This document shows positions 23,023 through 39,002 of a stretch of DNA of 46,082 bases, piece after piece. Position 1 is the first letter of the stretch. The number at the start of each line of letters is the position of its first letter. Origin of the DNA: a virus; the IMG/VR virus record IMGVR_UViG_3300024517_000002. The stretch is one strand, 5' to 3'. The notes beneath the pieces are model-generated. The model did not search any database and was not told where the DNA came from. It saw only the letters and a program-made list of their open reading frames with translations. A program made the position numbers and the translations under genes.

Positions 23023-24602
23023 CCTACCTACTGAAGCCCGAGGGCGTGAGCCCGAAGCGGGCGCTGTCCGAACACGAGACCCGCATCGCGCAGCTCGTGC
23101 CCGACGCGCTGAACATGGCCATCATGCTGCGCGACGGGAAGATCCCCAAGGCCCACCGCAAGCGAGCCTCCGATGCCGTGTGCGATTGGCTCGAGGAGTC
23201 CGTCCTGATTGGCGGAGAGATCATCAACGCCACGCGCAACCTGGACGTGTTAGATGATGGGGAGACTCCGGAGCCCGACCGACCCAGCCACGAAGACGAG
23301 GATGAACCCGATCCCGAGCCCGATCCCGAGCCCGATCCCGAGCCCGGCCTACTCATCCCCGCGGAACCGCCTGAGCGGTCTATTGACGAGGTGGGCCCCT
23401 TGATGGGCTGGATGGAGCCCGGCCTGCTCTGCATCCGGAACCCCGACGGAACCGGGGCGCCCGCCGTCCCCTGCCACGCCAACTATGCAGCGAAGGCCGT
23501 CAAGCTCCTCGATGGGCGCCCTGGGATCATCGACGTGCGCGGCGATTGTTCCGCCGGCACCAACAGCCTCGGCGGCGCTGGAACGCCGTGGGCGGCGGAT
23601 GGCGGCTACTGGGAGGGCAAGCCTCTACGCGTAGCCTTCCGGGGCGTCATCCCCGCGGCCACGCTGGGGGAGATCACGCTCCGTCAACGCATGAACAACG
23701 GCGATGAGCACGGCGTGGAGCTCCTGTGGCTGCAGAACCTCGCGGTCCAGGCTCGCTATCGATCCTGCATCGGGGCCCCCAAGGGGGATACCCTCGGAAC
23801 GCTGGTCATGCGGGGCGTTCGGCTGAAGCCGTTCCCGGCGTCCAAGGCTGCCGGTGAATACGGCGGCTATGGGTTCAAGTGGGGGATGCGGTGCAGCGCG
23901 CGGATGAACTACGACATCGACGGGCTGATCTGCGATCCGGTGCAGGAACACGTGATCTACGTGGACTCGCCGTATGGGTTCACGCGGTTCTGGAACGTGA
24001 CCCACCAGGACTCGTGGCGTACGGCCATCCAGGTGGTTTGCCGCTCGAAGGACAACCCAGGCCCCCCCGGAGGCGGGACCCTGTGGGTCAAAGACCTCTC
24101 GGCAACCTACTCAACGGAGGGCGAGGGCGGAGCGGCCTTCACTGTCGCGGGAGGGTTCGATGGGGACATCATCGCGGACGGCGTGTATGTGGTCGAGAAC
24201 CACGACGGTAAGCATGTCCACGGGGCTATCGTCATCTGGGTTGACGCCGGGCCCAAGCACGGGGCGTACCTGTACGACGCCGCCGGCGTCATCGAGGGGG
24301 TCGTCGAGGATTACGTGGCCTACACGGGGGCCGTGGTGCTGAATAACCTCAACATATCCCTCCCTGCGGGAGATCGGGACGTGGTTGCGGTGAGGGGGGC
24401 GGCCCACACCCAGATCGGGAGTCACGCCATCAACAGCCCGAAGGCCCACTTCTCGTTTGACGGGCCCTACCAGCTCGCCGGAAACCTGGCGCGGTTCAAC
24501 ATGGGCCCCATAACCACGCTAGAGGGACTTCCTGAGCTGGTCCGGAATGAGAAGATCGAGTTTCTCGCCCCCGTTGACGACCCCAAGGTCCGCTACCACT
24601 AG
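23019..24602 (+). CDS. Hypothetical 527-aa protein (possible beta-helix fold) with a DPEP tandem repeat
   Basis: An internal ATG overlaps the HNH stop (ATGA). The (DPEP)x4 linker lies at about residue 100. The C-terminal 350 aa have short beta-strand and Gly/Asn-turn periodicity. Confidence 0.6.
   Translation: MTYLLKPEGVSPKRALSEHETRIAQLVPDALNMAIMLRDGKIPKAHRKRASDAVCDWLEESVLIGGEIINATRNLDVLDDGETPEPDRPSHEDEDEPDPEPDPEPDPEPGLLIPAEPPERSIDEVGPLMGWMEPGLLCIRNPDGTGAPAVPCHANYAAKAVKLLDGRPGIIDVRGDCSAGTNSLGGAGTPWAADGGYWEGKPLRVAFRGVIPAATLGEITLRQRMNNGDEHGVELLWLQNLAVQARYRSCIGAPKGDTLGTLVMRGVRLKPFPASKAAGEYGGYGFKWGMRCSARMNYDIDGLICDPVQEHVIYVDSPYGFTRFWNVTHQDSWRTAIQVVCRSKDNPGPPGGGTLWVKDLSATYSTEGEGGAAFTVAGGFDGDIIADGVYVVENHDGKHVHGAIVIWVDAGPKHGAYLYDAAGVIEGVVEDYVAYTGAVVLNNLNISLPAGDRDVVAVRGAAHTQIGSHAINSPKAHFSFDGPYQLAGNLARFNMGPITTLEGLPELVRNEKIEFLAPVDDPKVRYH
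23310..23345 (+). repeat. 12-bp tandem repeat x3 (gatcccgagccc), encodes DPEP repeats
   Basis: Read directly from the sequence. Confidence 0.9.
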
Positions 24603-24631
24603 ACTCAGGCCGCAAGGTCTTCATTCATGAG

Positions 24632-24672
24632 AGCCCCCCGGTCGTTTGCATGGACGGCTGGGGGGCTTTTTT
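24632..24672 (+). terminator. Intrinsic terminator
   Basis: Stem agcccccc (24632-24639) with ggggggct (24660-24667), extendable inward. A T6 run follows at 24667-24672. Confidence 0.8.
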
Positions 24673-25174: not shown

Positions 25175-25233
25175 GCGGGATAGGTTTCTCGTGTGCAGCG
25201 AATCGCGCCGCACTCAACCCAAGGGAAAACTAA

Positions 25234-25809
25234 ATGCTTCGCTCTATCCTCGCCTCGGCCGTCATCCTCTCATCCTCCCTCGCCGCGCAAGGTGTGGACC
25301 TCCCCCCTGCCTCCAGCGCAATGTGGGAATCCATGGCGGTAGCTCACGAGGTCTCCACGCCTCAGATGGGATTCCTCGCCACGGGCAAGTTCCTCGATGA
25401 GATGGGCGCTCACTATAAGATCGACCCGGCGTGCATTGCCAACCACATGGACCGCGTAGGGCTTCCGGGCCCGTCGAACTACTTCTACGTGGACTCCGAC
25501 CCGTACAGCGGCTCCCCGCTCCTCCACAACACGCTGTACGTTTTCGACGCGGTGAAGTTCGGCCCGGTTTATGGCCGCTTCACCATCAAGCTCGGCGCCG
25601 GCTTCCCTGAACTGGGCTTGTGGGCTGCCACCTATCAGCAGGACCAGAAGGGCAACGACATACCCACGCTCCTCGACATCAGCCTCCGCGGCGCGTCCTT
25701 CATCTCCTCACTCGTGTTTGACACTGAAGACCCCCTGGCCTCGATGAAGGCGGAGTATGGCACCCGCCGAGGCCCCCAGGGAATCGCCACACTGGTTCCC
25801 GGTAAGTAA
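25234..25809 (+). CDS. Secreted protein (Sec signal, 191 aa)
   Basis: The signal is MLRSILASAVILSSSLAAQG. AAGGGAAAAC lies 4 nt upstream of the ATG. There is a weak E-S...S...G-x-L resemblance to the lytic transglycosylase motif (MWESMAVAHEVSTPQMGFL). Confidence 0.6.
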   Translation: MLRSILASAVILSSSLAAQGVDLPPASSAMWESMAVAHEVSTPQMGFLATGKFLDEMGAHYKIDPACIANHMDRVGLPGPSNYFYVDSDPYSGSPLLHNTLYVFDAVKFGPVYGRFTIKLGAGFPELGLWAATYQQDQKGNDIPTLLDISLRGASFISSLVFDTEDPLASMKAEYGTRRGPQGIATLVPGK

Positions 25810-25829: not shown

Positions 25830-25874
25830 GGCCCGGCCCCCCTTCCCGAACTGGGGGAGGTCGGGCCTTTTTTC
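25830..25874 (+). terminator. Intrinsic terminator
   Basis: Stem ggcccggcccccc with gggggaggtcgggcc (one mismatch, one G-U pair), followed by T6. Confidence 0.75.
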
Positions 25875-25897
25875 GTCCCCACTAAACCCTCCCTGGC

Positions 25898-25906
25898 TGG
25901 TAGGGT
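25898..25906 (+). promoter_or_regulatory. Extended -10 TGGTAGGGT, 6 nt upstream of ATG 25913
   Basis: The same 9-mer and the same spacing occur at 29861-29869. Confidence 0.55.
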
Positions 25907-25912
25907 GCTCCC

Positions 25913-26080
25913 ATGAAGGAAAAGAAGAAGCCTAAGTCCAAGCTCCTGCGCCCACGCGAAGCCGGCTACATCGCCCCCCTCAACGTGAAGACCCAACGCC
26001 CCCGCCGTTGGACCGCGAACGAGCTCCTGATGCGGCAGCACGTCATGGGGACCATCAACCAGCGGAGGTGGATGGTTTGA
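25913..26080 (+). CDS. Small basic protein (55 aa)
   Basis: Manual ORF MKEKKKPKSKLLRPREAGYIAPLNVKTQRPRRWTANELLMRQHVMGTINQRRWMV. Confidence 0.45.
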   Translation: MKEKKKPKSKLLRPREAGYIAPLNVKTQRPRRWTANELLMRQHVMGTINQRRWMV

Positions 26081-27047: not shown

Positions 27048-27158
27048 GGAGCGACATACGAGGTCTGCGAGGATTGCTACCGCTGTCTATGCGAAGCCCG
27101 CCGCGCCGGACGACGCAGGTTCACCGCCCGGGGCCTTCCGCACATCCTCCCCGGTAAG

Positions 27159-27164
27159 TAGGAT
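27159..27164 (+). promoter_or_regulatory. -10-like TAGGAT, 7 nt upstream of ATG 27172
   Basis: TANNNT hexamer with no SD. Confidence 0.4.
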
Positions 27165-27171
27165 CCCGGGT

Positions 27172-27555
27172 ATGGATACTGAAACCAAAACGCCGATCCT
27201 CACGCCCCAGGTCCCTGCGGAATCCTACGAGCCGACAGGCCAGTGGGTAATCCTCAGACTCCCCGACACCCTCCAGGACCTCCTCGACCCCTCCGGTACG
27301 ACGAAGAAGCTGGCCCTCCCCGAGGGGGTCACCCGGTCAAGCCTGGTTGATGAGCAGCTGGCCCAGGTCGAAAAGATGGGCCGGGGGTCCTGGGACGGCC
27401 GATCCCAGACCTGGATTCAGCCCCCTTTCTCCGTCGGAGACTGGGTGGTTTTCCCTCACAGGTGCGCCGAGGGCATCAAGGTGCTCGATGAGGCCGGCCT
27501 GGCCCTCGTCAACGCCTCCGATATCATGCTCTACGTCCAAGCCGGGAAGGTCTAA
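27172..27555 (+). CDS. GroES/Cpn10-like co-chaperonin (putative)
   Basis: Aligns by eye to GroES: PTGQWVILRL with PLHDRVIVKR, and PFSVGDWVVF...GLALVNASDIMLYVQ with LDVKVGDIVIF...VLIMSESDILAIVE. Confidence 0.45.
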   Translation: MDTETKTPILTPQVPAESYEPTGQWVILRLPDTLQDLLDPSGTTKKLALPEGVTRSSLVDEQLAQVEKMGRGSWDGRSQTWIQPPFSVGDWVVFPHRCAEGIKVLDEAGLALVNASDIMLYVQAGKV

Positions 27556-27598: not shown

Positions 27599-27853
27599 AT
27601 GCCCCCGACACCTGAGGACCTCGAGAAGGGGCTGGACGGCCTGGAGCAGGAGGTTACACGCCTCAAGCTCTGGGTCGCTGAGCATGACGGCCGCATCGAG
27701 GCTTGGTGGGCCAACCAGCACGCCTGGAATGAGAAGATCGAGGAGCGCCTCTGCGATCTAGCCCTCAGGCTCTCCGCCGTGGAGAAGCGGATGATGTGGT
27801 GGGCCGGAGCCGCGGCGGGCGCCGGTGGGTGGATGGGGAGTTACTTCGGGTAG
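27599..27853 (+). CDS. Coiled-coil protein with a Gly/Ala-rich hydrophobic C-terminus (84 aa)
   Basis: Track ORF. The C-terminus is MMWWAGAAAGAGGWMGSYFG. Confidence 0.55.
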   Translation: MPPTPEDLEKGLDGLEQEVTRLKLWVAEHDGRIEAWWANQHAWNEKIEERLCDLALRLSAVEKRMMWWAGAAAGAGGWMGSYFG

Positions 27854-28487
27854 ATGTCCATGTAGGAGGTTATGAACTCCGCCGCGAGCGGTGCGACGAT
27901 CGCGTTCCCGTAGGCGCGCAGGCGTCCCATGCGGCCGGGAACCCCATGAGCCAACGGGAATGCGCCGGGTTCAATTGGCCGCCATCGGGAACTTTTAGGG
28001 TCGTGACAGAGGACCCATTCGTGACCGTCCCAGAAAGATGAGTTTCGTGGGGTAGCGGAGCGCGTCCCTTCAAGTGAGCCTTTGATCGCTTCTTCATGCT
28101 TGCTGTAGGCGTGGCCCACCCCGCCAGCATCGCTACTTCGTTGAGGGACCGTGAGTTCTTGCCGTGCAGGTTGCTCTTGCCACTCTTCCAATCCCTCGCT
28201 GCGCAGGTCGGCCACGAAGTACAGTCGTTGTCTTTTATGTGGAGCACCGACGCAAGCCGCGATCCCGTCCAGACGGGGCGGTCGTCTGGCCACCCGGCTA
28301 ATCGTAAGGCGTGCGGCCATCCGCCGATCCCAGCAAATAGGTGCGTTTGACAAAACCTAGAGAGGGATTTAGGGGCGAGGCCCTGGATGGGCCGTTCGAT
28401 AATTGGCCCGCTAGGTATGTGTCCGCCCGACATCAGGCCTCTCATCCACTCAGCAGCAAATGCTTCCGTTTCGTTATAAACCGCCAT
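27841..28487 (-). pseudogene. Disrupted C5 DNA-cytosine methyltransferase-like gene (motifs split over two frames, catalytic core missing)
   Basis: Frame A (27870..28487) reads [15 protein letters not shown]...LFAGIGGW (motif I)...DRPVWTGS. Frame B (27841..28353) reads [17 protein letters not shown] (motif VIII-like) and [18 protein letters not shown] (motif X). I found no PCQ (motif IV) or ENV (motif VI). Confidence 0.55.
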
Positions 28488-28731
28488 CGTCCGGCTCGTC
28501 ATCGTTCTTCTCCAGCCACTCCGCGGCCCACCGCCCCGGGGGCTCGTCTACTATGTCCACCTCCTTGAGGTTGCCGGCGGGCCCCACGGTAAGCGCAGTT
28601 GTCGCGGTGTCCGGTATGTCACGCGCCGCCTGGCCGGCCTTCTCCCTGCCGCGGAGGATCTTCAGTATCTGGTCCAGCTTCCCCTCGATGCGCTCCAGCC
28701 TGGATTCGTTGGGGATCATGATGGCCACCAT
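28474..28731 (-). CDS. Hypothetical protein (85 aa)
   Basis: Track ORF. Its end overlaps the start of the methyltransferase-like gene by 14 nt. Confidence 0.5.
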
Positions 28732-28744
28732 CCGCAGTACCTAT

Positions 28745-28912
28745 TCATTCCGTATCCCCCGGCAGGCGCCGCGCTCTGCGCTCATCGGCCAGCTTAGCGC
28801 AACGCTTATGCAGCGTGCGTTCGAGCTTGGATGACACGTACAGGTATGTGCGAGCCTTGCGGTGATACCAGCGGATGGGGTATCCGCACCAAACGCAGTA
28901 GAGGGCGCTCAT
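28745..28912 (-). CDS. Small Zn-ribbon-like protein (55 aa)
   Basis: Internal ATG (MSALYCVWCGYPIRWYHRK...HKRC). ATGA overlap with the upstream HTH gene. Confidence 0.45.
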   Translation of the reverse strand: MSALYCVWCGYPIRWYHRKARTYLYVSSKLERTLHKRCAKLADERRARRLPGDTE

Positions 28913-29169
28913 TCCTGCCACGGCTCCTTTTCTTCCGTCTCTTCCTGTTGCAGCAACCCCAGGGCCTGAAGTCGCTGCAGGATGGTGTTTGCCACGATGT
29001 TCGTGCAGCCAAGGACGCGGGCTAGTTCGCCGACATCCGCGATGGATCCAGTCTCGTTGACCCACATCATGGCCTCCTTGTCTTTACGGCTGAGGTAGTC
29101 GCGGTTTCTCATTCGGCTGCGAAGGCGGATGGCCTTCAGCTGTTCGGTGGTTAGGCGTGAGGGGTCCAT
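28909..29169 (-). CDS. Winged-helix/HTH DNA-binding regulator (86 aa)
   Basis: SIADVGELARVLGCTNIVANTILQRLQALGLL resembles a MarR/Lrp-type HTH. It is the first gene of the reverse operon and faces the repeat-rich intergenic region. Confidence 0.55.
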   Translation of the reverse strand: MDPSRLTTEQLKAIRLRSRMRNRDYLSRKDKEAMMWVNETGSIADVGELARVLGCTNIVANTILQRLQALGLLQQEETEEKEPWQE

Positions 29170-29508
29170 CGTTGAGTCAAGCCTACCTGAAGAACCTCCG
29201 GAACGGGGAGGGTATCTGAAAGGGGCGTCGCGGGGGAGAAGATGCGGCATCGCTGCGCTCGCCTCTGACTCTATCGGGGTTTGGAGAGCAAGCTCTCTTT
29301 CCCGGAGGGGCCCTACATCGGGCCCCGGAACAGCTCGCTCTGCTCGCTGGAGACTGGGGCGCCGGGCTCGGCTCCCCGAGGCTCGGCAGGGCCCTCGCCC
29401 AAACACCCCCCCTCCCCCCGCAGATGCGGAGTTCAGAGAGGCCGACCTCCCGGGTTCTTTTTTTACCTCGCGCGCCGGGCCTAGCCCCCTGCGAGGGTTC
29501 AGCCCGCC

Positions 29509-29640
29509 TTACGGCGAGGTTGGGAAACCACCTGTTGGCGAGATGTGGCTGGCCATTCTCGATGCCAAGAAAACACCGGAGAGGGCATTGCGGAAGTTCC
29601 CCGCAAGAGCCACACTTGTTCCCGGTGTTGCTATTGACAT
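29509..29640 (-). CDS. Candidate leaderless micro-ORF (43 aa)
   Basis: On the minus strand, TAGGGT (29652-29647) lies exactly 6 nt upstream of ATG 29640. The peptide is MSIATPGTSVALAGNFRNALSGVFLASRMASHISPTGGFPTSP. Confidence 0.25.
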   Translation of the reverse strand: MSIATPGTSVALAGNFRNALSGVFLASRMASHISPTGGFPTSP

Positions 29641-29646
29641 TTCAGC

Positions 29647-29652
29647 ACCCTA
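29647..29652 (-). promoter_or_regulatory. -10-like TAGGGT (minus strand), candidate leftward promoter of the switch region
   Basis: Same hexamer and same N6 spacing as the + strand examples. Confidence 0.45.
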
Positions 29653-29774
29653 GCGCGCTTCACGGCGCGCCTCAAGACCGAACTCCCCCGGGGGTTTCGA
29701 AGGCTCGTCCTTGTGGCGGGCCTTTTTCGTATCTGTGGTGGTCTGCGGGGGCCGGACCACAATGGGCAGTAGGT

Positions 29775-29844
29775 CCAGTTTTCGGCCAGTTTTCAGATCC
29801 GAGCCAGATCCGAGCCAGATCCCGGCCAGTTTTCAGATCCGAGC
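29775..29844. repeat. Iteron- or operator-like direct repeat array
   Basis: The 22-mer cggccagttttcagatccgagc occurs at 29783-29804 and 29823-29844. CCAGTTTTC occurs 3 times. CAGATCCGAG occurs 3 times, plus one variant. The array ends 17 bp before the TGGTAGGGT promoter. Confidence 0.85.
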
Positions 29845-29860
29845 GCCTTTCCTCCCCCCG

Positions 29861-29869
29861 TGGTAGGGT
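29861..29869 (+). promoter_or_regulatory. Extended -10 TGGTAGGGT, 6 nt upstream of ATG 29876 (candidate rightward early promoter)
   Basis: Identical 9-mer and spacing to 25898-25906. Confidence 0.55.
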
Positions 29870-29875
29870 CGGGGG

Positions 29876-30196
29876 ATGAATGACGACAAGCTCACGGCCT
29901 ACGGCAAGCTCTACAAGGCCAAGATGGACGCGATGTTCTCCAGCGTTTTCGCCCCCGCCCTCGTCGAGGCCCGCTGCAGGGGCTCCCTGGAGGTCGTGTA
30001 CGCCCCGGAGCTGGCGAACACCTGCATGGGGCGCATGGGAGGGGCTTCCGTCATGCGGCCGTCCCTGGAGCAGGCTCACGCCCATATGGACACCGCGGAG
30101 TTCGTGGCCTGGGAAGATCAGCTATGGGACGACGCCAAGGCGAAGTCGGCGCTGATCGACTGCCTGAGGAGCCGCGTGGAGGCCCTGTCGTGCTGA
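29876..30196 (+). CDS. Hypothetical early protein (106 aa)
   Basis: Track ORF. Confidence 0.6.
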   Translation: MNDDKLTAYGKLYKAKMDAMFSSVFAPALVEARCRGSLEVVYAPELANTCMGRMGGASVMRPSLEQAHAHMDTAEFVAWEDQLWDDAKAKSALIDCLRSRVEALSC

Positions 30197-30363
30197 GCGA
30201 GACCGAGGACGTGCTGCTGGATGAGATGTGCGGAAAGGCGCCGCGGCTGATCAAGCGGGCGGCGGGCGTAGAGGCGGGCGGCGACGACATACTCCTCCTG
30301 GAGAGTACGGTGACCTCCCTCAGGTGGCTTGCGGTCCGCCTGGAACGGGTCTGGGGCCGATGA
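30190..30363 (+). CDS. Hypothetical small protein (57 aa)
   Basis: GTG start inside track ORF 30124..30363; it overlaps the upstream stop. Confidence 0.45.
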   Translation: MLSETEDVLLDEMCGKAPRLIKRAAGVEAGGDDILLLESTVTSLRWLAVRLERVWGR

Positions 30364-30605
30364 GCGACCTCGGCCGCATCCTCTCGAGCGAGGACAAAAC
30401 CGGGGGCATGCGTGACTATTACGACGTGTGGGAGATGCTGGACAGGGATTCCATTGAGGCCGTGTACCGGATCCGGTTTGGGGCGAGGGCTCGCGTAAAG
30501 CTGGCGTATAGGGTGCAAAAGGGGATCGAGATGCCATTCCCGTGGGTCAAGCGCGAGATGGAGATGCGAGACATGAGCCTGGGGCGCATTCTGCGGACTC
30601 CTTGA
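30360..30605 (+). CDS. Hypothetical protein (81 aa)
   Basis: An internal ATG of track ORF 30228..30605 with an ATGA overlap. Confidence 0.55.
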   Translation: MSDLGRILSSEDKTGGMRDYYDVWEMLDRDSIEAVYRIRFGARARVKLAYRVQKGIEMPFPWVKREMEMRDMSLGRILRTP

Positions 30606-30714
30606 ACGGCGGGGCCGGAGGCCTACGATGCGACCATCTCAGTACCCTCCGGGTTGCTCAGGGGTCGTATCCCTCCACGCCCCCTGAGCGGCCCACCTCT
30701 CCTGGAGCCGCGCC

Positions 30715-31386
30715 GTGCATACCACCGAGCAAGTCGGGTTCTCAGAGCCCAACGTCCATTTCGTCCACACGCACCACAAGGTGACGTGCTATCTCGTCGA
30801 AGGGGATCCGTTCTGCGCCGATACGCGGCGTTGCACCTGCGGGGCGTACGGGTCGGTCTACGGTATGGACCGGTTCTCGTGGAAGAACCTCGTCACCACG
30901 GCGGGGGCCCTCTGGTACATGCAATGCATGCACCGGGGGCTCTTCGAGCAATCGTTTGACTCAGCAATCGTCCCCACCGTGAGCGACACGATTACGCCCA
31001 CGAACGAGTTCCGCACGCTAGAGCTCGCCAACGGGGGCAGCGCGGCCCCCAACGTCGCCAACAATCGCAGCAACATGGTCGGGATCATCGGTTCCACGCA
31101 GAAGGAACCGAGCCAAACCCCCGAAAACTACCCCGTAACCGACGACGGAGACACGCTGAACACCGGCAGGGGGGCTGACGTGATGACCTACCGGTACGAC
31201 TACGCGGCCGGGGACTTCAACGCCGTGGGGATCGCCGACCTGTGGATAACCAACCAGAGCCCCGGCGCCTCGGAGCCCATCCTGAACCACGCCGACGAGG
31301 CCTCGTTCCCCGGAGCCGTGGTCTTTACGAAGACGGCCACCGATACCCTGCAGGTGTCAGTCAACCACCAGGGCGCGCTCCCTTGA
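30715..31386 (+). CDS. Hypothetical (possibly virion-associated) protein (223 aa)
   Basis: Track ORF with a GTG start. GC3 is high from the first codons. The start is uncertain. Confidence 0.5.
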   Translation: MHTTEQVGFSEPNVHFVHTHHKVTCYLVEGDPFCADTRRCTCGAYGSVYGMDRFSWKNLVTTAGALWYMQCMHRGLFEQSFDSAIVPTVSDTITPTNEFRTLELANGGSAAPNVANNRSNMVGIIGSTQKEPSQTPENYPVTDDGDTLNTGRGADVMTYRYDYAAGDFNAVGIADLWITNQSPGASEPILNHADEASFPGAVVFTKTATDTLQVSVNHQGALP

Positions 31387-31395
31387 TCCCCCCTC

Positions 31396-31418
31396 CCGTC
31401 TCCAGGGGCCGGAGACGG
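31396..31418 (+). other. Intergenic hairpin (8-bp stem ccgtctcc/ggagacgg), no U tract
   Basis: Read directly from the sequence. Confidence 0.5.
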
Positions 31419-31458
31419 ATGCCAAGAGGGGGGCCTATCAGGTCCTTCGGAGTGAACA

Positions 31459-33519
31459 ATGGCAGCAGGTGACAAGGCAATTTACCGGGAGATAACGGCC
31501 GGGGGGACTCTCTCGGCCGTGGGTGGGCACATCCCCTGGGATACGACGGTAATTGAGGAAACCGGGTCCTTCTCCACGGATGAGTGGACGTGCGACGAGG
31601 CGGGGCACTATCTCGTATTCGGCTCCTACGTGGCCACGATTGCATCCGGGAACGTCCGGTCCGAGGTGCGCTCAGCCCTCACGCTTTCAGCCTTCGGGGT
31701 CGAGTTCCGGTCCCAATCGTGGGGCTCGAGGACCCTCAAAAACCAGCTGAACAAGGTCATCTGCAACTCCGCCGGCATCGTGACGATGCTCGTGGGGGAC
31801 ACGATGAAGCTCCACGCTCAGATGACGGGGAACTCCTCCCCCGCCAACCTGACGTTCGACGCGAACCGCTCCTACATGGGGGTGATCAAGCTGGACGATG
31901 ACGCGGACTACATCCGCCTGCGCTCCACCACGGACTCCCCCGTGGCTACGGAAACGCTCCAGGTGTACGACGAATGGAACGTGGACGACGAGGTAGATAC
32001 GGGGTCCTTCGGCTGGGTGGCCGGCGCCGGGGCGGAGTGGATCAGCTTCACGCAGCTCGGCTGGTATCTCGCCATCATCTCCCTCCACGCCCGCCACAAC
32101 GACCCCTCCGCGGCCGTGCCCCTGTCGTGCGTCGCGGTGCTGGAGCTCGACGAGAACGGGGACAGCGTGACCATCACGGAGATCGCGCGGGTCACCACGT
32201 TCCTCGACGGGCAGGACGGGTGCGATGACGGCTACCTGAACTTCAAGCTGCCGATCGAGAACGTCGATGTGGACGCCCGGGTGCGCGTTCGATTCGAGCT
32301 CTCCGGCACGGGGTACTCGGACGACTTCACCATCGTGGCCGAGGCGACGACCTTTACCGCGGTCTATCTCGAGCGGCAGGATATCGACATCGCCGTGGGG
32401 ACGATGACGGTGGACGACACGAGCGCGCCGAATCCGGCGGATCGGCAGGAGTTCGATACGTGGACCGTTGACGAGGACAGCCCCTCCGCGGACTCCTACA
32501 CGAGCCTGGGCAACCCGAACCGCGAGCTGCAGATCGACACGAACGCCTTCACGCTGGTTTTCTTCCAGGTGAACTGCTCCAGGCCCAGCACCGTGGCCGT
32601 GGGGCAGCCGTTCAATTACCGATACTTCGTCCGCAATACGCTCACGGGGCCCTTGTACGGGGACGGCCGGTGCTTCACCCGGAACAACAGCGCCTCCCAG
32701 GGGAACGAGGCCGGCGAGCACGGAATGGTGGTGATCGAGGCGGACGACACGGAGGATTACGGGCTCCACATCTTCCGCAACACGACCTCGACGGACACGA
32801 CGCTGCAGCTCGATCGGGATTTCACCTCGATCCAGTTCCTGGCCCTCGGGACCCTGTTCCCGAAGGTTGTCGAGGTGGCGGAGTCCGTGGAGTTCGAGGA
32901 GGGGATCTACACCTCCCAGGACAAGATTTTCCTCCCGGATACGGACACCGTGGAGTTTACGGAGGACCTCTTCTTCAAGCGGGGCCGGAAGGTGGAGATC
33001 GCCGAGACCCTGGAGTTCGCCGAGAGCCTGTTTATCTCGAGGGTCCTGCTGTTCCTGCCGGACGCAGAGACGATTGAGTTCAGCGAGACTCTCCACTTCT
33101 CAAGGGCCCGCCTGGTCATCCCTGCGCTGGAGGCCGTGGAGTTCGCCGAGAGCCTGGTCGTCCTGAGGGGGCGCAAGGTGATCGTAGATGAGGCCATCGA
33201 GTTCGACGAGGACGTCTACCTCGTCGTCGCGGTCACGGGAAATATGGTCTTCATTCAGGTGGCTACGGACACCCTGGAGTTCACCGAAAGCGGGGTGATT
33301 ACCGATATCAACCTGATCCGCGTGCTCCCCGTGGCGGGGTATATCGCGGCTGGCGGGGCCGAGGAGGGATATATCGCCTCCAGTGAGCACGCCGGATACA
33401 TCGCGGCGGGGGGCTGCGAAGAGGGATTCATCGCATCCAGTGCGCACGCCGGCTACATTGCCCCAGCGGGGGGCGACGAAGGACAGATCACCTCATCGCC
33501 CTACGAGGGGCGCTACTAG
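31459..33519 (+). CDS. Tail fibre or receptor-binding-like protein with internal repeats (686 aa)
   Basis: GGAG lies 8 nt upstream. There are five repeats of about 21 aa of the (T/A)(L/I/V)EF-x-E-x-L type. Three 19-aa tandem repeats of AGYIAAGGxEEGxIASSxH lie at the C-terminus. Confidence 0.6.
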   Translation: MAAGDKAIYREITAGGTLSAVGGHIPWDTTVIEETGSFSTDEWTCDEAGHYLVFGSYVATIASGNVRSEVRSALTLSAFGVEFRSQSWGSRTLKNQLNKVICNSAGIVTMLVGDTMKLHAQMTGNSSPANLTFDANRSYMGVIKLDDDADYIRLRSTTDSPVATETLQVYDEWNVDDEVDTGSFGWVAGAGAEWISFTQLGWYLAIISLHARHNDPSAAVPLSCVAVLELDENGDSVTITEIARVTTFLDGQDGCDDGYLNFKLPIENVDVDARVRVRFELSGTGYSDDFTIVAEATTFTAVYLERQDIDIAVGTMTVDDTSAPNPADRQEFDTWTVDEDSPSADSYTSLGNPNRELQIDTNAFTLVFFQVNCSRPSTVAVGQPFNYRYFVRNTLTGPLYGDGRCFTRNNSASQGNEAGEHGMVVIEADDTEDYGLHIFRNTTSTDTTLQLDRDFTSIQFLALGTLFPKVVEVAESVEFEEGIYTSQDKIFLPDTDTVEFTEDLFFKRGRKVEIAETLEFAESLFISRVLLFLPDAETIEFSETLHFSRARLVIPALEAVEFAESLVVLRGRKVIVDEAIEFDEDVYLVVAVTGNMVFIQVATDTLEFTESGVITDINLIRVLPVAGYIAAGGAEEGYIASSEHAGYIAAGGCEEGFIASSAHAGYIAPAGGDEGQITSSPYEGRY
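32941..33228 (+). repeat. About five degenerate 63-66-nt coding repeats (VEF-x-E-x-L...R units)
   Basis: Seen in the translation TVEFTEDLFFKR / TLEFAESLFISR / TIEFSETLHFSR / AVEFAESLVVLR / AIEFDEDVYLVV. Confidence 0.7.
33334..33504 (+). repeat. 57-nt tandem repeat x3 (19-aa units)
   Basis: AGYIAAGGAEEGYIASSEH / AGYIAAGGCEEGFIASSAH / AGYIAPAGGDEGQITSSPY. Confidence 0.85.
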
Positions 33520-33528
33520 GACCCAGCC

Positions 33529-33948
33529 ATGGCTCTGCGAGACATCGACCAGAAGAAGCTCATCGAGGGCACCGACAGCTGGAACGTCATGCGCTGGCGC
33601 CGGCAAAACGGCGATGACGTGCAGCGAGGGGACATCACCGGGTGGTCCCTCAAGGTCTGGAATATCGAGGATTCAGAGCTGGTCTACACGAAAGCGGTCA
33701 CCGGGAACGCCGATGTGGCTGGGGAGTGGCTCTGGTTTGACGGCCTGCAGGCCGGGGATGGCTACTGGGATGAGCTGTCGGACAAGGGCTACAACAACCG
33801 ACACTTCCTCACGGAGACCCTCGTCGGAGCCGGGGTGATGGTCGGCGGGTCGAAATACCAGATCGAGTACATCCTCGACTGCACCCTGGGGTCCCTTGGG
33901 AAGATGAAGAAGTTTTTCATCTGGGATATGGACTCGGGGCGAGCGTAA
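33529..33948 (+). CDS. Hypothetical protein (139 aa)
   Basis: Track ORF immediately after the fibre-like gene. Confidence 0.6.
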   Translation: MALRDIDQKKLIEGTDSWNVMRWRRQNGDDVQRGDITGWSLKVWNIEDSELVYTKAVTGNADVAGEWLWFDGLQAGDGYWDELSDKGYNNRHFLTETLVGAGVMVGGSKYQIEYILDCTLGSLGKMKKFFIWDMDSGRA

Positions 33949-34093
33949 AGTGGTCGCCCAGCCCACCAAGAGCCGATATCCGGTAAAGCAGGGGCCCCCG
34001 TCATCGCTAAATCCAAGGGGCCGACCGGAACGCTTAGTGAGCTGGACTCAGGAAAGCCTACCACATCGGGCTTTCTACGGAGGGTTTTCGGAC

Positions 34094-34099
34094 TAGGAT
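34094..34099 (+). promoter_or_regulatory. -10-like TAGGAT, 6 nt upstream of ATG 34106
   Basis: TANNNT-N6-ATG with no SD. Confidence 0.45.
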
Positions 34100-34105
34100 C
34101 CCGCC

Positions 34106-34585
34106 ATGGGTAAGATCAAGGCCGAGATGATGCGGAGCCTCGTGGAGGACTCGGGCGAGCTCCTCAACCCGAAGAACGGGAAGGAAAGCCCCGACAGCAC
34201 GCCGCTGGTTGGGTATATGCGCGAGCGGCTCAGCGCAACCGACGGCCACGGGCTGGCCAAGTTCTACGGGAAGAACACGCGCTCCGTCGTGGATCGGCTG
34301 ATCCAGGTGGCCCGCGGAGACCTCCTCGAGAAGCTCCTGTCCATGGACACCGATAAGATCGAGGCGAAGGATCTGCATATCGCCTTCGGCCACGCAACGC
34401 GGATGTGGCTTGAGGCTACGAAGCTCCTGCTTGCCTACACGGCTGGACGCCCGCGCGAGCACCGGGAAGTGGAGTCCGACGTGGAGCTCCCCGAAATCAT
34501 CGTCATCGGCCCCGATACGCCCGATGTAGTGATGCCGCTGCCGGAGAACGAAAAGGCTATTGCGGAAAACCTACCCCCCACGTAG
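34106..34585 (+). CDS. Hypothetical protein (159 aa; small terminase candidate by position only)
   Basis: Track ORF. Helical and charged. It is the only plausible TerS-sized gene upstream of TerL, but 4.6 kb separates them. Confidence 0.45.
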   Translation: MGKIKAEMMRSLVEDSGELLNPKNGKESPDSTPLVGYMRERLSATDGHGLAKFYGKNTRSVVDRLIQVARGDLLEKLLSMDTDKIEAKDLHIAFGHATRMWLEATKLLLAYTAGRPREHREVESDVELPEIIVIGPDTPDVVMPLPENEKAIAENLPPT

Positions 34586-34588
34586 GGT
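34560..34588 (+). promoter_or_regulatory. Promoter-like TTGCGG-N17-TAGGGT, 6 nt upstream of ATG 34595
   Basis: Read directly from the sequence. Confidence 0.45.
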
Positions 34589-34594
34589 TGGGTG

Positions 34595-34870
34595 ATGAAG
34601 CAAGAATCACTCAGCCTGTCCGGGAAAGGCTGGTCCGCTCACGCAACCGTCGGCCGCTCAGGCAAGCGCGGCGTCTTTCGCATCTCGGTACACGACTTCC
34701 ACCGAGAGGGTGTCTACGTTCATGACGTGGACCCCCTGGGCATAGTAGAGGGCATGAGGGGCAAGGGTACTGAGCCTGAGCCCGACGGGACGGAGCCGGC
34801 GGCGCCCGACTCCGACCTGGAATCAGATGAAGACGAGACTTCCGACGCCTCCAGGGACGCCTTCGAATAA
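34595..34870 (+). CDS. Hypothetical protein with an acidic tail (91 aa)
   Basis: Track ORF. ATG 34595 is preferred over GTG 34592. Confidence 0.5.
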   Translation: MKQESLSLSGKGWSAHATVGRSGKRGVFRISVHDFHREGVYVHDVDPLGIVEGMRGKGTEPEPDGTEPAAPDSDLESDEDETSDASRDAFE

Positions 34871-34893
34871 AGCTGAATCACGCTCTCAGCTTA

Positions 34894-34934
34894 GGAGGCC
34901 GCGGGTTTTAGGACGCCCGCGGCCTCCGTCTTTT
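34894..34934 (+). terminator. Intrinsic terminator
   Basis: 12-bp perfect stem ggaggccgcggg with cccgcggcctcc, then gtcTTTT. Confidence 0.8.
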
Positions 34935-34936
34935 GC

Positions 34937-35027
34937 GCACCCGTAGCTCAATGGCAAGAGCACCGCCTTTCTGGGGCTCCGAGCCGCAATTCGGGCGGCG
35001 ATGGCCTGTTCGAATCAGCCCGGGGCA
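34937..35027 (+). tRNA. tRNA-like element (degenerate or interrupted; possibly a pseudo-tRNA)
   Basis: The D-arm is canonical (GCTC-AATGGCAA-GAGC, 34946-34961). The T-arm has a GTTCGAATC loop (35008-35016). Only 4 of 7 acceptor base pairs form. The anticodon stem CCGCC/GGCGG encloses 26 nt instead of 7. Confidence 0.3.
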
Positions 35028-35045
35028 CCCTACTATGCGCAGCCC

Positions 35046-36314
35046 ATGGCTAAACTTCTCGCGCTCTTCCTCGCCACCGCCGCGGTGTTCGTAACCCTGC
35101 CCGTTCTTGTCAGGCCCTCACCCCCGCCCCCGGATATCGTCCTGATCATCGTGGATGACCTCTCGCGTTCGGACCTGGACCTGATCCACACGCCGAACCT
35201 CGACGCCCTCGCTGCGTCCGGGGTAACCTTCACGCGAGGCTACTCCATGCCGACATGCGCACCGACTCGGTGGTCCATGCTCTATGGCGAGTTCAACCCG
35301 AGGCACTTCCGGTCCGAATGTCGCGACAACCCGACGAACCCGTTCCCGCACCCCCTCGCCGCTCCGATTCTCGACCCAAGCCGCCCAAACCTCTCGAATG
35401 TCCTAACTGCCGCGGGTTACACCGCTGGGTTCTTCGGGAAGTGGCACACGGGGTCGGTCATGAGTGGGTGGCAGAATGCCCCGTTGGAGGTAGGTTTCAC
35501 CGCGTGGCGAGCCGGGGGCCCGCCGCTTCTTTCTGCGAGCGGTGGGGCTTGTAACAGCTTCGGATTTTACGACTGGCAACGGGTAGACGATGGAACGATC
35601 ACGCAGGAGACTGGATACGCCACTAAAGCTCAGGTGGACGCGGCCATTGATTGGGCTTCCGGCACTCCGGGCCCAAGGTTCGCGATTGTCTCGTTTCACA
35701 GTCCGCACATACCGCTACATCTACCTCCCGAGGAGGTGGGGCGAACCGATCGCGAGCAGTTTGAGGCCATGGTTAGAAATCTCGACGTGGAGGTGGGCCG
35801 CCTCCTTGGCGCGATCCCGGACGACGCTTGGGTCTTCTTCATCGCAGACAACGGGACCTTCTCCGGCAACGTCGCCCCCGGCGTTGACCCCGACAAGGCC
35901 AAGCGGACAACCTTCGAAGGAGGAATAAATGTCCCTGTACTCGTTCGAGGACCAGGTGTATTGGGTGGACGAGAGTGCGGCCGACTGGTTTGCACTACAG
36001 ACATTCTTGCAACGCTCGCTGAAATCGTCGGCGCTCCTCCTCCCTTATGGGCTGAAGACTCGCTCTCTTTCCTCCCGCTGGTTCACGGACCCACCGGCCC
36101 ACCCACCCGCACCATCGGATACGCAGGCCACGTTCGAGACGACGGAACCGAGCACGACGAGGCCGCCTTTACGGAGAGGTACAAGCTGCGCCGGGTCTTT
36201 GGCGTGGAAACGCTCTACGACCTGAAGGCCGACCCTCTCGAGGAGAACCCCCTGCCCGCCGGCGCGCTGCCCGGGACCTGGGCGAAGCTCTCCGCGTTCA
36301 TCGACGCCCAATAA
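35046..36314 (+). CDS. Formylglycine-type sulfatase (arylsulfatase family) with a signal peptide
   Basis: DIVLIIVDDLSRSDL...SMPTCAPTRWSMLYG contains the C-x-P-x-R signature. GKWH and HSPHIP motifs are also present. The N-terminal hydrophobic signal is MAKLLALFLATAAVFVTLPVLV. Confidence 0.85.
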   Translation: MAKLLALFLATAAVFVTLPVLVRPSPPPPDIVLIIVDDLSRSDLDLIHTPNLDALAASGVTFTRGYSMPTCAPTRWSMLYGEFNPRHFRSECRDNPTNPFPHPLAAPILDPSRPNLSNVLTAAGYTAGFFGKWHTGSVMSGWQNAPLEVGFTAWRAGGPPLLSASGGACNSFGFYDWQRVDDGTITQETGYATKAQVDAAIDWASGTPGPRFAIVSFHSPHIPLHLPPEEVGRTDREQFEAMVRNLDVEVGRLLGAIPDDAWVFFIADNGTFSGNVAPGVDPDKAKRTTFEGGINVPVLVRGPGVLGGRECGRLVCTTDILATLAEIVGAPPPLWAEDSLSFLPLVHGPTGPPTRTIGYAGHVRDDGTEHDEAAFTERYKLRRVFGVETLYDLKADPLEENPLPAGALPGTWAKLSAFIDAQ

Positions 36315-36775: not shown

Positions 36776-37069
36776 CTAGTAGCGGACATTCTGGGTAGCG
36801 GCCAGCGGGCGGTCTAGCTTGGCCTGGAGCAGGTCGGCGTCCAGCTTGCGCGTGAGCGTGCGGTGCTCCTCCTCGCGGTCTTCCGTGTCGTCGATCCTGT
36901 CGAGCGCCTTGGAGACCATAGCCTTGGCCTGCGCCGCCTGAGTGTTTGCCCAGAGGATAAACCCTGCCGTGATGACCGACCCCGAGACGGCCAGAATAGA
37001 AGCGACGGGCACGGCGAAACTGGAGTTCCCCGCGGCGTCGGTGATGTGAATAAATGTCTCTGCGAGCAT
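36776..37069 (-). CDS. Membrane-anchored coiled-coil protein (97 aa)
   Basis: Track ORF. GAGAAGGGAAAGC lies upstream of the ATG. The TM segment is FAVPVASILAVSGSVITAGFILW, followed by a charged helix. Confidence 0.55.
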   Translation of the reverse strand: MLAETFIHITDAAGNSSFAVPVASILAVSGSVITAGFILWANTQAAQAKAMVSKALDRIDDTEDREEEHRTLTRKLDADLLQAKLDRPLAATQNVRY

Positions 37070-37210
37070 TGCTTTCCCTTCTCAAGCGGGCAGCCGGATT
37101 GCCGCCCTGCTTTTTCTCTATCGGAACCCGAGGCCCCGGAACTTGAACCCTTTACCGGTCAGGTAAGGAAAACTGCGCACAAACCTCTTCCTGGGGGAGG
37201 CTTTTCCACC

Positions 37211-37222: not shown

Positions 37223-37630
37223 ATGGCTAAGCGCAAGAAGAAGGTCTCCCGCAAGAAGAAGGTCTCCCGCAAGAAGAAGGCCAAGCGGGCCGCCCCCCTG
37301 GCTTTCTCCGTGCCCGCGGCTGAAATCGAAGCAAGCACCTATGAGCGCCGCCGATGCCCGCGCTGCGATGGAGCCATGCCCGCCCGCCAAGGCTGGCGCC
37401 CCGTGCCCGATGCCGGGAACTGGCGCCGCCGCGTCCGCCGCTGCGAAACCAAGCGGTGTGGCTTCGCCGAGGTCTTCATCGAGCTCCCGCAGGGGGACCT
37501 CGAGGAGTACGTACGCGTACATGAGATCGTGGCTAGTTTCCGCCAGGTGGTCACGTCAATGCAAATGACAGGCACCCCCGCCCCGAACCTGTCGCGCCCC
37601 CTGCGTAAGCTCCTCGGGCTGGCCAGCTGA
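37223..37630 (+). CDS. Basic Zn-ribbon protein with an N-terminal RKKKVS repeat (135 aa)
   Basis: An internal ATG of track ORF 36863..37630. Reads MAKRKKKVSRKKKVSRKKKAKR...CPRCDG...CETKRC. Confidence 0.55.
   Translation: MAKRKKKVSRKKKVSRKKKAKRAAPLAFSVPAAEIEASTYERRRCPRCDGAMPARQGWRPVPDAGNWRRRVRRCETKRCGFAEVFIELPQGDLEEYVRVHEIVASFRQVVTSMQMTGTPAPNLSRPLRKLLGLAS
37232..37280 (+). repeat. 18-bp tandem repeat x2.7 (cgcaagaagaaggtctcc)
   Basis: Read directly from the sequence. Encodes RKKKVS units. Confidence 0.9.
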
Positions 37631-37848
37631 TGGACCGCCGCCGATTTATGACAGGGATGCTCGCCGCGGCCGGGGTCGCGGTCGCGCCGCGGGCGGAGGG
37701 TTGCGAGCGCCTCTATTCGGATCAATGGGATGAGCTCTGGTTCTTCGGTGGGGACGAGGAGGACAAGGGCCGCACCTTCGAGGACCTACCCATCGTCCAG
37801 CGCATCGAGCCCATCCGCTTTATCCACTCCTACCCTTGTGGCCAGTAA
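37630..37848 (+). CDS. Small exported protein with a twin-arginine (Tat) signal peptide (72 aa)
   Basis: Reads MDRRRFMTGMLAAAGVAVAPRAEG. The ATG overlaps the upstream TGA. Confidence 0.55.
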   Translation: MDRRRFMTGMLAAAGVAVAPRAEGCERLYSDQWDELWFFGGDEEDKGRTFEDLPIVQRIEPIRFIHSYPCGQ

Positions 37849-38059
37849 GCCCCCCTGCGCCAAGTGTGGCCATCAGAGGGGCGCCCCGCCCTTTCTGAAG
37901 CTCCCGGCCTCCCCGTCCTTGCTCGCCTATTTCTTCGCCCGCTATACTGCCGGCCCTGGATTCACGCCCTTTGAACTAGAGAGAGGCCTCTCCGTCCGCG
38001 GACTCAGGACCTCGGTGGATATCCGTAGCGCGCCACGCGAAACCCTCCGACGGAAGTAG
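37838..38059 (+). CDS. Possible small CxxC protein (73 aa)
   Basis: GTG start within track ORF 37730..38059. GC3 is moderate. Contains PPCAKCGH. Confidence 0.3.
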   Translation: MASKPPCAKCGHQRGAPPFLKLPASPSLLAYFFARYTAGPGFTPFELERGLSVRGLRTSVDIRSAPRETLRRK

Positions 38060-38179
38060 GGTTTTCCCCCTTGCGCTCCTCGCCGAGAGGGCGGACCATA
38101 GAGTTCGTCCCGGGGGCTTTGGGAGGTGGATCACCTCAGGGACACATCCCTAGTCCGATCCGCCCTGAAAGGGAGGCCC

Positions 38180-38911: not shown

Positions 38912-38960
38912 GACTTCCCCCGCCACCGGCAGCGCGAAACGCTCTCTCGCGTGAAATAGT

Positions 38961-39002
38961 AGAGGCCCCGCAGACCAGCATCTGCGGGGCCTCTTTCCGT
39001 TT
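38961..39002 (+). terminator. Intrinsic terminator
   Basis: 14-bp perfect stem agaggccccgcaga with tctgcggggcctct and loop ccagca, followed by a T-rich tail. Confidence 0.75.

Follow-up and report, generated by a model that had tools for sequence, protein, structure and literature searches.

Introduction

Face-to-face or overlapping transcription switches are known from coliphage 186 (pR/pL), lambda (oop), and P22 (sar). In lambda, boxA and boxB lie downstream of PL, and CII, a small helix-turn-helix (HTH) protein, recognizes direct repeats one turn apart across the -35 region of a promoter without a good -35 element. Repeats of 11 bp also flank a promoter in R1 parC. Furthermore, PMC9974457 cites put RNA and lambda Q as antiterminators that suppress pausing (put RNA: Hwang et al. 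2022). Here, we compare with these systems the 706-bp gap at positions 29170-29875 of the IMG/VR virus record IMGVR_UViG_3300024517_000002, a stretch of 46,082 nucleotides that we call, at its full length, the window. The gap separates a leftward gene block headed by the gene of an 86-amino-acid HTH protein from a rightward block headed by the gene of a 106-amino-acid protein.

The gap holds a structured non-coding module that is also present in related phages, together with a direct-repeat array that those relatives lack. We give roughly an even chance to the reading that the gap is a central divergent control region, composed of an ancestral structured module and a phage-specific repeat array. 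Such an arrangement resembles a lambdoid early control region, in which divergent promoters likewise part a short regulatory block, transcribed leftward, from a rightward one, and one of the two sides opens with a small HTH gene. A preliminary description of the gap had dwelt on its iteron-like repeats. These are the young, lineage-specific part, the old, constrained part being the stretch that had been taken for spacer, and the interest of the locus centers on the conserved module, not on the repeats.

Results

The gap contains a module conserved in related phages

As the preliminary description had it, the gap is the longest non-coding stretch of the window (706 bp, with a runner-up of 310 bp in our gene map); it is also the largest of three divergent junctions, and all the sequence features that had been listed for it are present at their positions. 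What had been missed is where the constraint lies. Relatives were collected through the terminase, and in two of them, L010 and L134, positions 29378-29735 of the window have a homologous counterpart (approximately 4862-5265 and 30-385, respectively). In L010 (3300041024 of the Joint Genome Institute, JGI), this counterpart lies in a 550-bp divergent intergenic region as blocks collinear with those of the window. The constrained part of the gap is this module, including a plus-strand terminator at 29699-29729, rather than the hairpins near 29308-29327 that had been singled out.

Semi-global alignment of window positions 29480-29740 with L010 positions 5040-5275 gave a score of 37.3, compared with 8.8 ± 2.9 for dinucleotide shuffles, none of which reached it (0/500). 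The scores were 25.5 for the window and L134 and 19.8 for L010 and L134, again reached by none of 500 shuffles (approximately 8-9 ± 3), and the z-scores of the module alignments against shuffles were approximately 6-10. Control scores were 5-14, with 4.6 for the reverse complement and 10-14 for other intergenic regions of the window.

This similarity is found between distant phages. The terminase of L010 is 38% identical to that of the window by local BLAST (approximately 39% across the alignment) and its portal protein 33%; the terminase of L134 is approximately 39% identical to the window's and 70% identical to that of L010. The genes flanking the module in L010 are not homologous to those of the window, and in L134 the module lies at the start of the sequence, directly upstream of a 297-amino-acid gene and the terminase gene. 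A third relative, L132, keeps only the last 123 nt before its rightward gene, a strong plus-strand terminator included. The closest relative, L008 (terminase 72% identical), has no HTH gene, 106-amino-acid gene, repeats, or module within the 17 kb available.

Searches beyond these relatives gave little. Positions 28500-30500 have no DNA similarity to any of 50,697 phage records, and 14 other contigs with the same genes are 99.9-100% identical and therefore carry no comparative signal. Exact-pattern searches for further copies returned chance matches or nothing in IMG/VR and 25 chance matches in the JGI metagenomes, a collection that excludes the window and L010, and neither nhmmer nor a covariance model found another copy in 25 related loci. 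A covariance model of the domain around hairpin P_a (see below) scored 72-87 bits on the three copies and hit nothing else in 313 kb of related loci. An Rfam scan, a check suggested earlier, yielded no family for the module: at the gathering score of Rfam 15, the whole window gives only a tRNA at 34937-35027, and L010, L134, and L132 likewise give only tRNA; the best match of the gap at E <= 10 has 19.7 bits against a gathering score of 80, and the L010 element gives nothing at E <= 5. The module appears to represent a non-coding element that has not been described before, in a phage clade that is itself uncharted.

Hairpins of the module covary

Toward its left end, the module carries a C-rich block, CCCCCCCTCCCCCCG (29406-29420, plus strand), which is identical in L010 (4902-4916) and whose minus strand is G-rich and Shine-Dalgarno-like. 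The last 10 nt of the block are repeated at 29851-29860, before the rightward -10 element. Next is a hairpin, CCCGCC-TTAC-GGCG(a)GG (29503-29519), the minus strand of which forms a C(GUAA)G GNRA tetraloop; its loop is invariant and its stem covaries in L010 and L134, with changes on both sides in three of the four pairs of helix 1. An invariant block, AACCACCTGTTGG (29526-29538), which occurs once in the genome and reads AACCACCTTTTGT in L134, leads to hairpin P_a, CGAGA-(13 nt)-TCTCG (29539-29561). In L010 and L134, P_a reads CCGGA-(13 nt)-TCCGG, such that two pairs are changed on both sides, and 96% of its cells are paired.

To the right of a further hairpin (29588-29606), hairpin H1, GCGCGC-TTCACG-GCGCGC (29653-29670), adjoins the leftward -10-like box on its upstream side. 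This GC hairpin had been pointed out before and has a predicted energy of -11.6 kcal/mol; its L010 counterpart, GCTGCG-ATGTACGG-CGCAGT, differs on the plus strand by a U-A pair in place of C-G and by a G.U pair. A palindrome (29680-29697) and the terminator (29699-29729) complete the module. In an 82-column alignment of the conserved domain, 92% of cells pair, compared with 36-49% when the partners are slid, and 5 of 13 pairs are changed on both sides. With three sequences, we regard the covarying stems as suggestive, not as proof.

The preliminary description had proposed a structured leader ahead of the HTH gene. Structured nucleic acid is present there, but the folding of the 470-nt stretch as a whole exceeds that of shuffled sequences by only a modest margin on either strand (minus, z = -2.3; plus, z = -1.8), and the right part has z = 0.2. 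Similarly, the GC hairpin reported near 29308-29327 exists (29307-29326, -15.9 kcal/mol), but it sits in a non-conserved left spacer (29170-29377) that cannot be aligned with L010 or L134. This spacer has three -10-like boxes on the minus strand, namely TAGGCT (29185-29180), which stands 10 nt before the HTH ATG, TACCCT (29214-29209), and TAGAGT (29273-29268); the four TANNNT boxes in the 706 nt correspond to chance expectation.

The gap lacks a coding signal

Across positions 29170-29870, each of the six frames has codon-usage log-odds below or close to zero. The 43-codon open reading frame (ORF) at 29509-29640 (minus strand), previously described as a micro-ORF, starts at a conserved ATG. 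As a gene it did not hold up, its codon log-odds being negative and its peptide not conserved in the relatives. The G+C fractions at its three codon positions are 0.49/0.65/0.56, compared with approximately 0.62/0.40/0.74 in real genes. From the homologous ATG, ORFs extend for 43 codons in the window, 76 in L010, and at least 105 in L134; these ORFs cross the conserved DNA in differing frames, have no peptide in common, and are non-coding in composition. The micro-ORF is probably not protein-coding. A plus-strand ORF ending at TAG 29651-29653 and the long L134 ORF are likewise doubtful as genes, since their frames differ across phages and their composition is non-coding.

The same data bear on the idea that the gap is decayed coding sequence, filled with functionless pseudogene remnants. 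The neighboring methyltransferase gene is frameshifted, and long chance ORFs cross the gap, including the minus-strand ORF of L134, which has a CxxC...CxxC motif. Nevertheless, the three phages differ in the frame in which the conserved blocks would be read, the stems covary, no ORF has coding composition, and conservation at approximately 39% terminase identity argues for function. We give hardly any credence to this idea.

A separate observation concerns the minus strand at 29402-29313 (approximately 4899-4849 in L010), where a G-rich block, CGGGGGGAGGGGGGG, immediately precedes a start codon in the window as well as in L010. The short ORFs that begin there are loosely similar (LGEGPAEPRGAEP... 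and MGSGRAKPTSEP..., respectively) and differ several times at third positions, at a length too small to judge whether a micro-protein is conserved.

Promoter-like boxes share one geometry

As noted earlier, a TAGGGT on the minus strand (29652-29647) is separated by 6 nt from ATG 29640, and the whole reads TAGGGT-gctgaa-ATG (29638-29652). The homologous boxes are TAGTGT-cttgagt-ATG in L010 and TAGCTT-tcccgg-ATG in L134, so that TAGNNT-N6/7-ATG is conserved in three phages (CAT-N6/7-ANNCTA on the plus strand of 29638-29652). On the plus strand, the extended -10 element described before, TGGTAGGGT, is found at 29861-29869, and ATG 29876 lies 6 nt past its TAGGGT. The putative rightward promoter, together with the start of the 106-amino-acid gene (29851-29878), reads CCTCCCCCCG-TGG-TAGGGT-cggggg-ATG, with an extended -10 and no -35 element. 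It is 224 bp from the putative leftward promoter, with the terminator between them.

The word TAGGGT itself is not enriched in the window (11 sites, with 9.6 expected). The informative feature is the geometry of a -10-like box, 6 or 7 nt, and a start codon, which recurs at real gene starts: TANNNT-N6/7-ATG/GTG is found at starts 25913, 27172, 27599, 29876, 34106, 24686, and 44723, and at 29640 as well; several of these starts lie directly behind strong terminators. Boxes such as TACGGT and TAAGCT cannot act as Shine-Dalgarno sequences, and operon-internal genes use GGAGG or AAGGGAAAAC. At start 34595, the TAG of the box is the stop codon of the preceding gene. In L008, the divergent starts 3170 (minus) and 3208 (plus) carry TATTGT-N6-ATG and TAGGAT-N7-ATG; they are only 37 bp apart and therefore leave room only for leaderless-type promoters, and the geometry is seen again at 8085 (minus). 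This leaderless-type geometry is thus present at independent gene starts of the window as well as in L008, L010, and L134. Both TAGGGT boxes of the gap share the geometry of other likely promoters in the genome, in agreement with the divergent control region proposed previously.

The CCYNCCC pattern of the rightward promoter is common to starts 25913, 27172, and 34595. Specifically, CCYNCCC-N3-7-TAGGRT-N6/7-ATG occurs on the plus strand at 25887-25915, 27146-27174, 29851-29878, and 34570-34597, and these four sites may form a promoter class. The window also encodes a sigma factor of the extracytoplasmic function (ECF) type (43485-44189, minus strand; Sigma70_r2, E = 2e-9), and a phage ECF-like sigma factor may imply a phage-specific promoter class. 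We rejected a host assignment from this protein, as its best NCBIfam matches (Planctomycetaceae and Rhodopirellula/Verrucomicrobium subfamilies) are far below threshold.

A conserved terminator lies between the putative promoters

The terminator of the module consists of GAAGGCTCG-TCCTTGTGG-CGGGCCTTT followed by TTCG (29699-29729, plus strand; -15 to -16.5 kcal/mol with a T5 run), that is, a GC-rich hairpin (29699-29725) running into TTTTTCG as in an intrinsic terminator; a simple consensus scan gave no call. Homologous or positionally equivalent plus-strand terminators, stronger than that of the window, are found in L010 (-21.9), L132 (-28.1), and L134. A terminator scan of the plus strand found none from 27449 up to a weak hairpin with a T-run (29458); the first good candidate after that is at 29723. 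The plus-strand operon that precedes the gap ends at 27853, where it overlaps the end of the leftward block.

We infer the transcription starts and stops, and the strand on which the module functions, from such signals. The minus strand has the conserved promoter-like box with its ATG and the C(GUAA)G tetraloop, and one pair of P_a is U.G there, whereas the plus strand has C.A at the same pair. In favor of the plus strand, the terminator is present in four phages. Given these signals on either strand and the plus-strand terminator scan downstream of 27853, we think that both strands are transcribed.

The plus-strand signals can also be taken on their own. The module would then be an independent non-coding RNA gene of approximately 250-330 nt, whose product ends at the terminator (29699-29729) and acts in trans or antisense to the leftward promoter and leader, or else a cis-acting leader in front of the rightward (late) operon, its terminator being overcome on demand as in the lambda PR'-6S RNA-tR' arrangement. 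The terminator with its U-run fits this proposal, as do the G.U wobbles and the better summed hairpin energy of the plus strand, the covariation of H1 despite its place upstream of the leftward -10, and the location of the L134 module ahead of the terminase gene. As in the put and Q systems, a structured element would sit near a phage promoter in association with a terminator, and the order of short structured leader, terminator, and late genes including terminase fits a plus-strand transcript. However, the module has no sequence or Rfam similarity to these systems; there is no visible plus-strand promoter, with no plus-strand TANNNT in 29170-29863 and no conserved plus-strand promoter block in the three sequences. 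In L010 (TTGCCT-N17-TAGCAT) and L132 (TTGACT-N16-TATCTT), sigma-70-like promoters lie past the terminator, and the rightward genes therefore need no read-through. The conserved TAGNNT-N6/7-ATG and the C(GUAA)G tetraloop also belong to the minus strand. Altogether, we consider it rather unlikely that the module works on the plus strand in either of these ways.

The repeat array is specific to this lineage

The direct-repeat array (29775-29844, plus strand) covers 70 bp, from -101 to -32 relative to the rightward start. Its composition agrees with the preliminary description: the 22-mer CGGCCAGTTTTCAGATCCGAGC occurs at 29783-29804 and 29823-29844, 40 bp apart, CCAGTTTTC occurs three times, and CAGATCCGAG occurs three times in addition to the variant CAGATCCCGG at 29816. 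Tandem Repeats Finder reports a period of 11 with 2.6 copies and 100% match. CCAG is found at 29775, 29786, 29804, 29815, and 29826 (spacings of 11, 18, 11, and 11 bp), and the four copies of CAGATCC(G/C)(A/G)G are centered near -77.5, -66.5, -55.5, and -37.5. The array can be described as two unit types and one 40-bp duplication, giving seven units over 70 bp, and 16 nt separate its end from the TG of the extended -10. Because the repeat unit carries GATC, the array holds four GATC sites in 50 bp, the densest GATC cluster of the genome. Exact copies of its units are found nowhere else in the 46 kb, and one-mismatch copies elsewhere are at chance level.

A look for the repeat unit in related phages, as had been suggested, did not find it in L010 or L134. 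The terminator and the start codon of the window are 145 bp apart, with a hairpin (29738-29760) and the array in this interval. L010 (TTGCCT-N17-TAGCAT) and L134 (TAACCT-N6-ATG) have hardly any sequence between the terminator and the rightward promoter, and the array is therefore a lineage-specific insertion. Since the sites are phased by one helical turn, they lie on one face of the DNA, which fits cooperative binding of a regulator. Most likely, the array binds several copies of a DNA-binding regulator.

The best candidate for the predicted binder is the neighboring 86-amino-acid HTH protein (28909-29169, minus strand), the product of the first gene of the leftward operon, because it is adjacent to the array and equally lineage-specific. 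This protein matches Pfam MarR_2 below the cut-off (E = 0.0017) and, by sequence in the PDB, the winged HTH (wHTH) of the CRP-like 3iwz (E = 0.006). An AlphaFold2 (AF2) model has four helices at a predicted local distance difference test (pLDDT) score of 78, and Foldseek relates it with probabilities of up to 0.99, at weak E-values, to HTH domains of Lrp/AsnC and MarR proteins. The wHTH assigned earlier is therefore upheld as an HTH but not as winged, as the AF2 model has no predicted wing. The protein consists of a single HTH domain and an acidic tail, and it is nearly an orphan: we found no relatives in IMG/VR, none by tblastn in phage records, and none in 5.8e9 proteins. A full HMMER search of 1.84e9 representatives returned one remote, borderline homolog, P0125, of 85 amino acids and 43% identity, with the same acidic C-terminal tail and a weak MarR_2 match. 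On the other side of the gap, the 106-amino-acid protein has no Pfam, PHROG, or NCBIfam match, and its AF2 model is all-helical and poor (pLDDT 63).

Together, the array and this protein recall lambda CII. The window likewise has a small HTH protein (of 86 amino acids), direct repeats in 11-bp phase, the proximal one centered near -37.5, and a promoter in which an extended -10 stands without a -35. In contrast, the window has seven units of two kinds over 70 bp, compared with the two tetramers of CII, and its HTH protein is not homologous to CII and is a candidate binder only.

The preliminary description had also considered an immunity or early-decision switch of the lambdoid type. In such a switch, the HTH protein would serve as the repressor at the repeats and control two back-to-back promoters. 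The divergent promoters, the small HTH gene first on the left, and the repeats beside the rightward promoter are as such a switch would have them. On the other hand, no Cro-like or second HTH protein is encoded on the right, and the HTH protein has no cleavable or oligomerization domain. The repeats are direct and confined to one side, not palindromic operators common to both promoters, and a terminator lies in the 224 bp that separate the promoters. No integrase was matched in approximately 50 ORFs scanned against Pfam, PHROGs, and NCBIfam, most of whose proteins match nothing; the lack of an integrase and of a CI/Cro pair had already been remarked on, and none appeared among these ORFs. With neither a repressor/Cro pair nor palindromic operators found, we judge a CI/Cro-like switch improbable.

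The repeats had prompted a second proposal, a replication origin with 29775-29844 as iterons, and the hairpin module could similarly, as DNA, be an origin or a single-strand initiation signal. As in iteron origins and parC-type centromeres, whose repeat arrays are bound cooperatively, several direct repeats (at least three, in 11-bp phase over 70 bp) are in helical phase. There is a T7 run at 29458-29464, strand-specific hairpins would fold in single-stranded DNA too, and with no replication gene recognized genome-wide, the origin of this phage is unlocated. Against this, the neighbors give no Rep-like family match, and the window has no ParR/ParM or ParB-like gene and no DnaA box. The only AT-rich run, T7, is 310 bp from the array, where an unwinding element would have to be adjacent. 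The repeats are absent from relatives that conserve the adjoining module, cumulative GC skew turns at approximately 35 kb and 45 kb and not at the gap, and the overlap of the array with the -35 zone fits a role in transcription. We regard an origin at this site as very improbable.

Several other candidates were rejected. For GGGGTTTCGAA, an attP or tRNA-fragment reading has no T-arm complement and no integrase to go with it; an actinobacterial LexA box (GAAC-N4-GTTC) has the wrong spacing; IHF and DnaA boxes gave no match; and a cos or pac site is at odds with the contig ends of the relatives, which lie off the module, and with a distance to the terminase gene that ranges between 1 and 9 kb.

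A divergent control region as the favored reading

In the reading that we favor, that of a central divergent control region, at least three phage lineages would have kept the module where a short leftward block meets the rightward block, even as the genes on either side were replaced. Leftward transcription would begin at or near the conserved TAGNNT-N6/7-ATG, at approximately 29640, and the transcript would provide a leader of approximately 470 nt to the HTH operon, with P_a, the invariant block, and the GNRA hairpin in its 5' part. Polymerase arriving from the left, from the operon that ends at 27853 and would have no terminator of its own, would be halted at the conserved terminator (29699-29729), which would make the rightward genes depend on their own promoter. 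Since the opposing transcripts would overlap the leftward promoter and leader, there would be scope for antisense control or transcriptional interference. The array, inserted in this phage, would bind several copies of a regulator on one face of the DNA, by which the rightward promoter would be activated or repressed.

Several observations weigh against this reading. With just three full copies of the module and one partial copy found, covariation carries little statistical weight; the stem of P_a is the same in L010 and L134, and its two changes could each be a single event. In TAGGRT-N6-ATG, AGGR could partly be a Shine-Dalgarno sequence and not a -10. The terminator of the window is moderately strong, and hairpins of similar score occur inside genes. 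As to the strand, the G.U wobbles and the summed hairpin energies (-150 kcal/mol on the plus strand vs -123 kcal/mol on the minus strand) point to the plus strand, H1 lies upstream of the leftward -10 and thus outside a leftward transcript starting at 29640, and the plus strand of 29170-29863 offers no TANNNT. The HTH protein and the repeats are linked by proximity and shared lineage-specificity alone, and a partial copy of the repeat, TTTCAGATA at 29221-29213, is at chance level.

Comparison with the lambdoid early region adds a further likeness. Approximately 80-140 nt past the putative leftward start, the minus strand of the window has a linear block and a GNRA-type hairpin, comparable in position to boxA and boxB; the conserved domain spans +78 to +140 from that start. 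The differences are that the window has no CI/Cro pair, palindromic operators, or identified N-like protein, that its invariant block is unlike boxA, and that no downstream terminators of the kind expected for nut- or put-type elements were seen, as the minus strand has no hairpin with a U-run from 29640 to 28700. The leading analogy would thus be with nut/put-type leader elements, by position only, and on the other strand with lambda PR'-6S RNA-tR'. As in 186 pR/pL, oop, and sar, opposing transcription is predicted over the same DNA (leftward start at 29640 and rightward terminator at 29729); unlike in those switches, both the rightward transcript and a small antisense RNA are putative.

A bolder proposal, which we put forward tentatively and at somewhat less than even likelihood, is that the module represents a new structured phage RNA family, acting as a two-strand switch that decides between early and late expression. 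One strand would provide a leader element and the other a terminated antisense or read-through transcript, and the module would have been retained for a very long time at the junction of leftward and rightward genes in an uncharted high-GC phage clade. If the module is an RNA, it would be a new phage regulatory RNA family with a searchable signature, namely the promoter-like box, the covarying hairpins, the invariant 13-mer, and the terminator. In any case, few of the phage proteins scanned can be annotated, and the element is conserved more strongly than the proteins around it; with almost no protein annotatable, the module is therefore one of the few handles on expression control in this clade. 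The array and the orphan HTH gene, in turn, make up a compact candidate pair of operator and regulator.

Genome context and further observations

The window, a metagenomic phage contig (JGI 3300024518, Ga0255048_10000177), has a G+C content of approximately 64%. Its ends share a 127-bp direct repeat (1-127 and 45956-46082), and the assembly is therefore a circle with 45,955 bp of unique sequence. A portal-like ORF spans the contig end (from 44723, wrapping to 795) and is 64% identical to L008 8231-10138. The large terminase (39201-40871) has approximately 25% identity to terminases of Streptomyces and Thermobifida phages. Family matches are few among the ORFs scanned: the terminase, a split C5-type methyltransferase, the ECF-like sigma factor, and a sulfatase. 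Several large-terminase homologs from this clade, with lengths of 840-910 amino acids (P0004, P0007, P0019, and P0020), carry intein or homing-endonuclease domains (PF07591, PF14890, PF14528, and PF13403).

The predicted transcription units on the plus strand run from 44723 past the contig end to 27853, from 29876 to 36314, and from 37223 to 40871; those on the minus strand run from 29169 to 27841, from 37069 to 36569, and from 44636 to 40810. The leftward unit beside the gap (29169-27841) comprises the HTH gene, a 55-amino-acid Zn-ribbon-like ORF, an 85-amino-acid ORF, and the C5-type DNA methyltransferase (27841-28502, minus strand), which is frameshifted, with the N- and C-terminal parts of PHROG 363 in separate ORFs. 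Its L008 homolog is a single 485-codon ORF with TATTGT-N6-ATG at its start.

Four very strong intrinsic terminators, at 24630-24672 (plus), 25830-25873 (plus), 36318-36280 (minus), and 41750-41710 (minus), have energies of -27 to -32 kcal/mol and T6 runs and bound transcription units; two of the four are directly followed by a -10-like box and ATG. The ribosome-binding motif AAGGGAAAAC (or AAGGAAAAC) is found at 2544-2559, 7943-7958, 14631-14646, 25221-25236, and 37069-37082 (minus), and the genes behind it are presumably highly expressed structural genes.

The sulfatase gene (35001-36314, plus strand; Pfam PF00884, E = 9e-29) lacks the third-codon-position G+C (GC3) signature of other phage genes. 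The relative L114 has two sulfatase-like genes as well (2538-3818 and 5267-6292), and the sulfatase is an auxiliary gene that recurs in the clade. Among genomes, the best match to the protein, in an Actinomycetota metagenome-assembled genome, is just 28% identical, and a host assignment on this basis was rejected. The 91-nt tRNA-like sequence at 34937-35027 (plus) scores 37 bits with Rfam and gets no call from ARAGORN; in L010, a clear tRNA of 47.5 bits (3983-4055, plus) stands immediately ahead of the leftward gene block. Perfect tandem repeats are present at 37232-37280 and 23307-23346 (18 bp x 2.7 and 12 bp x 3.3, respectively).

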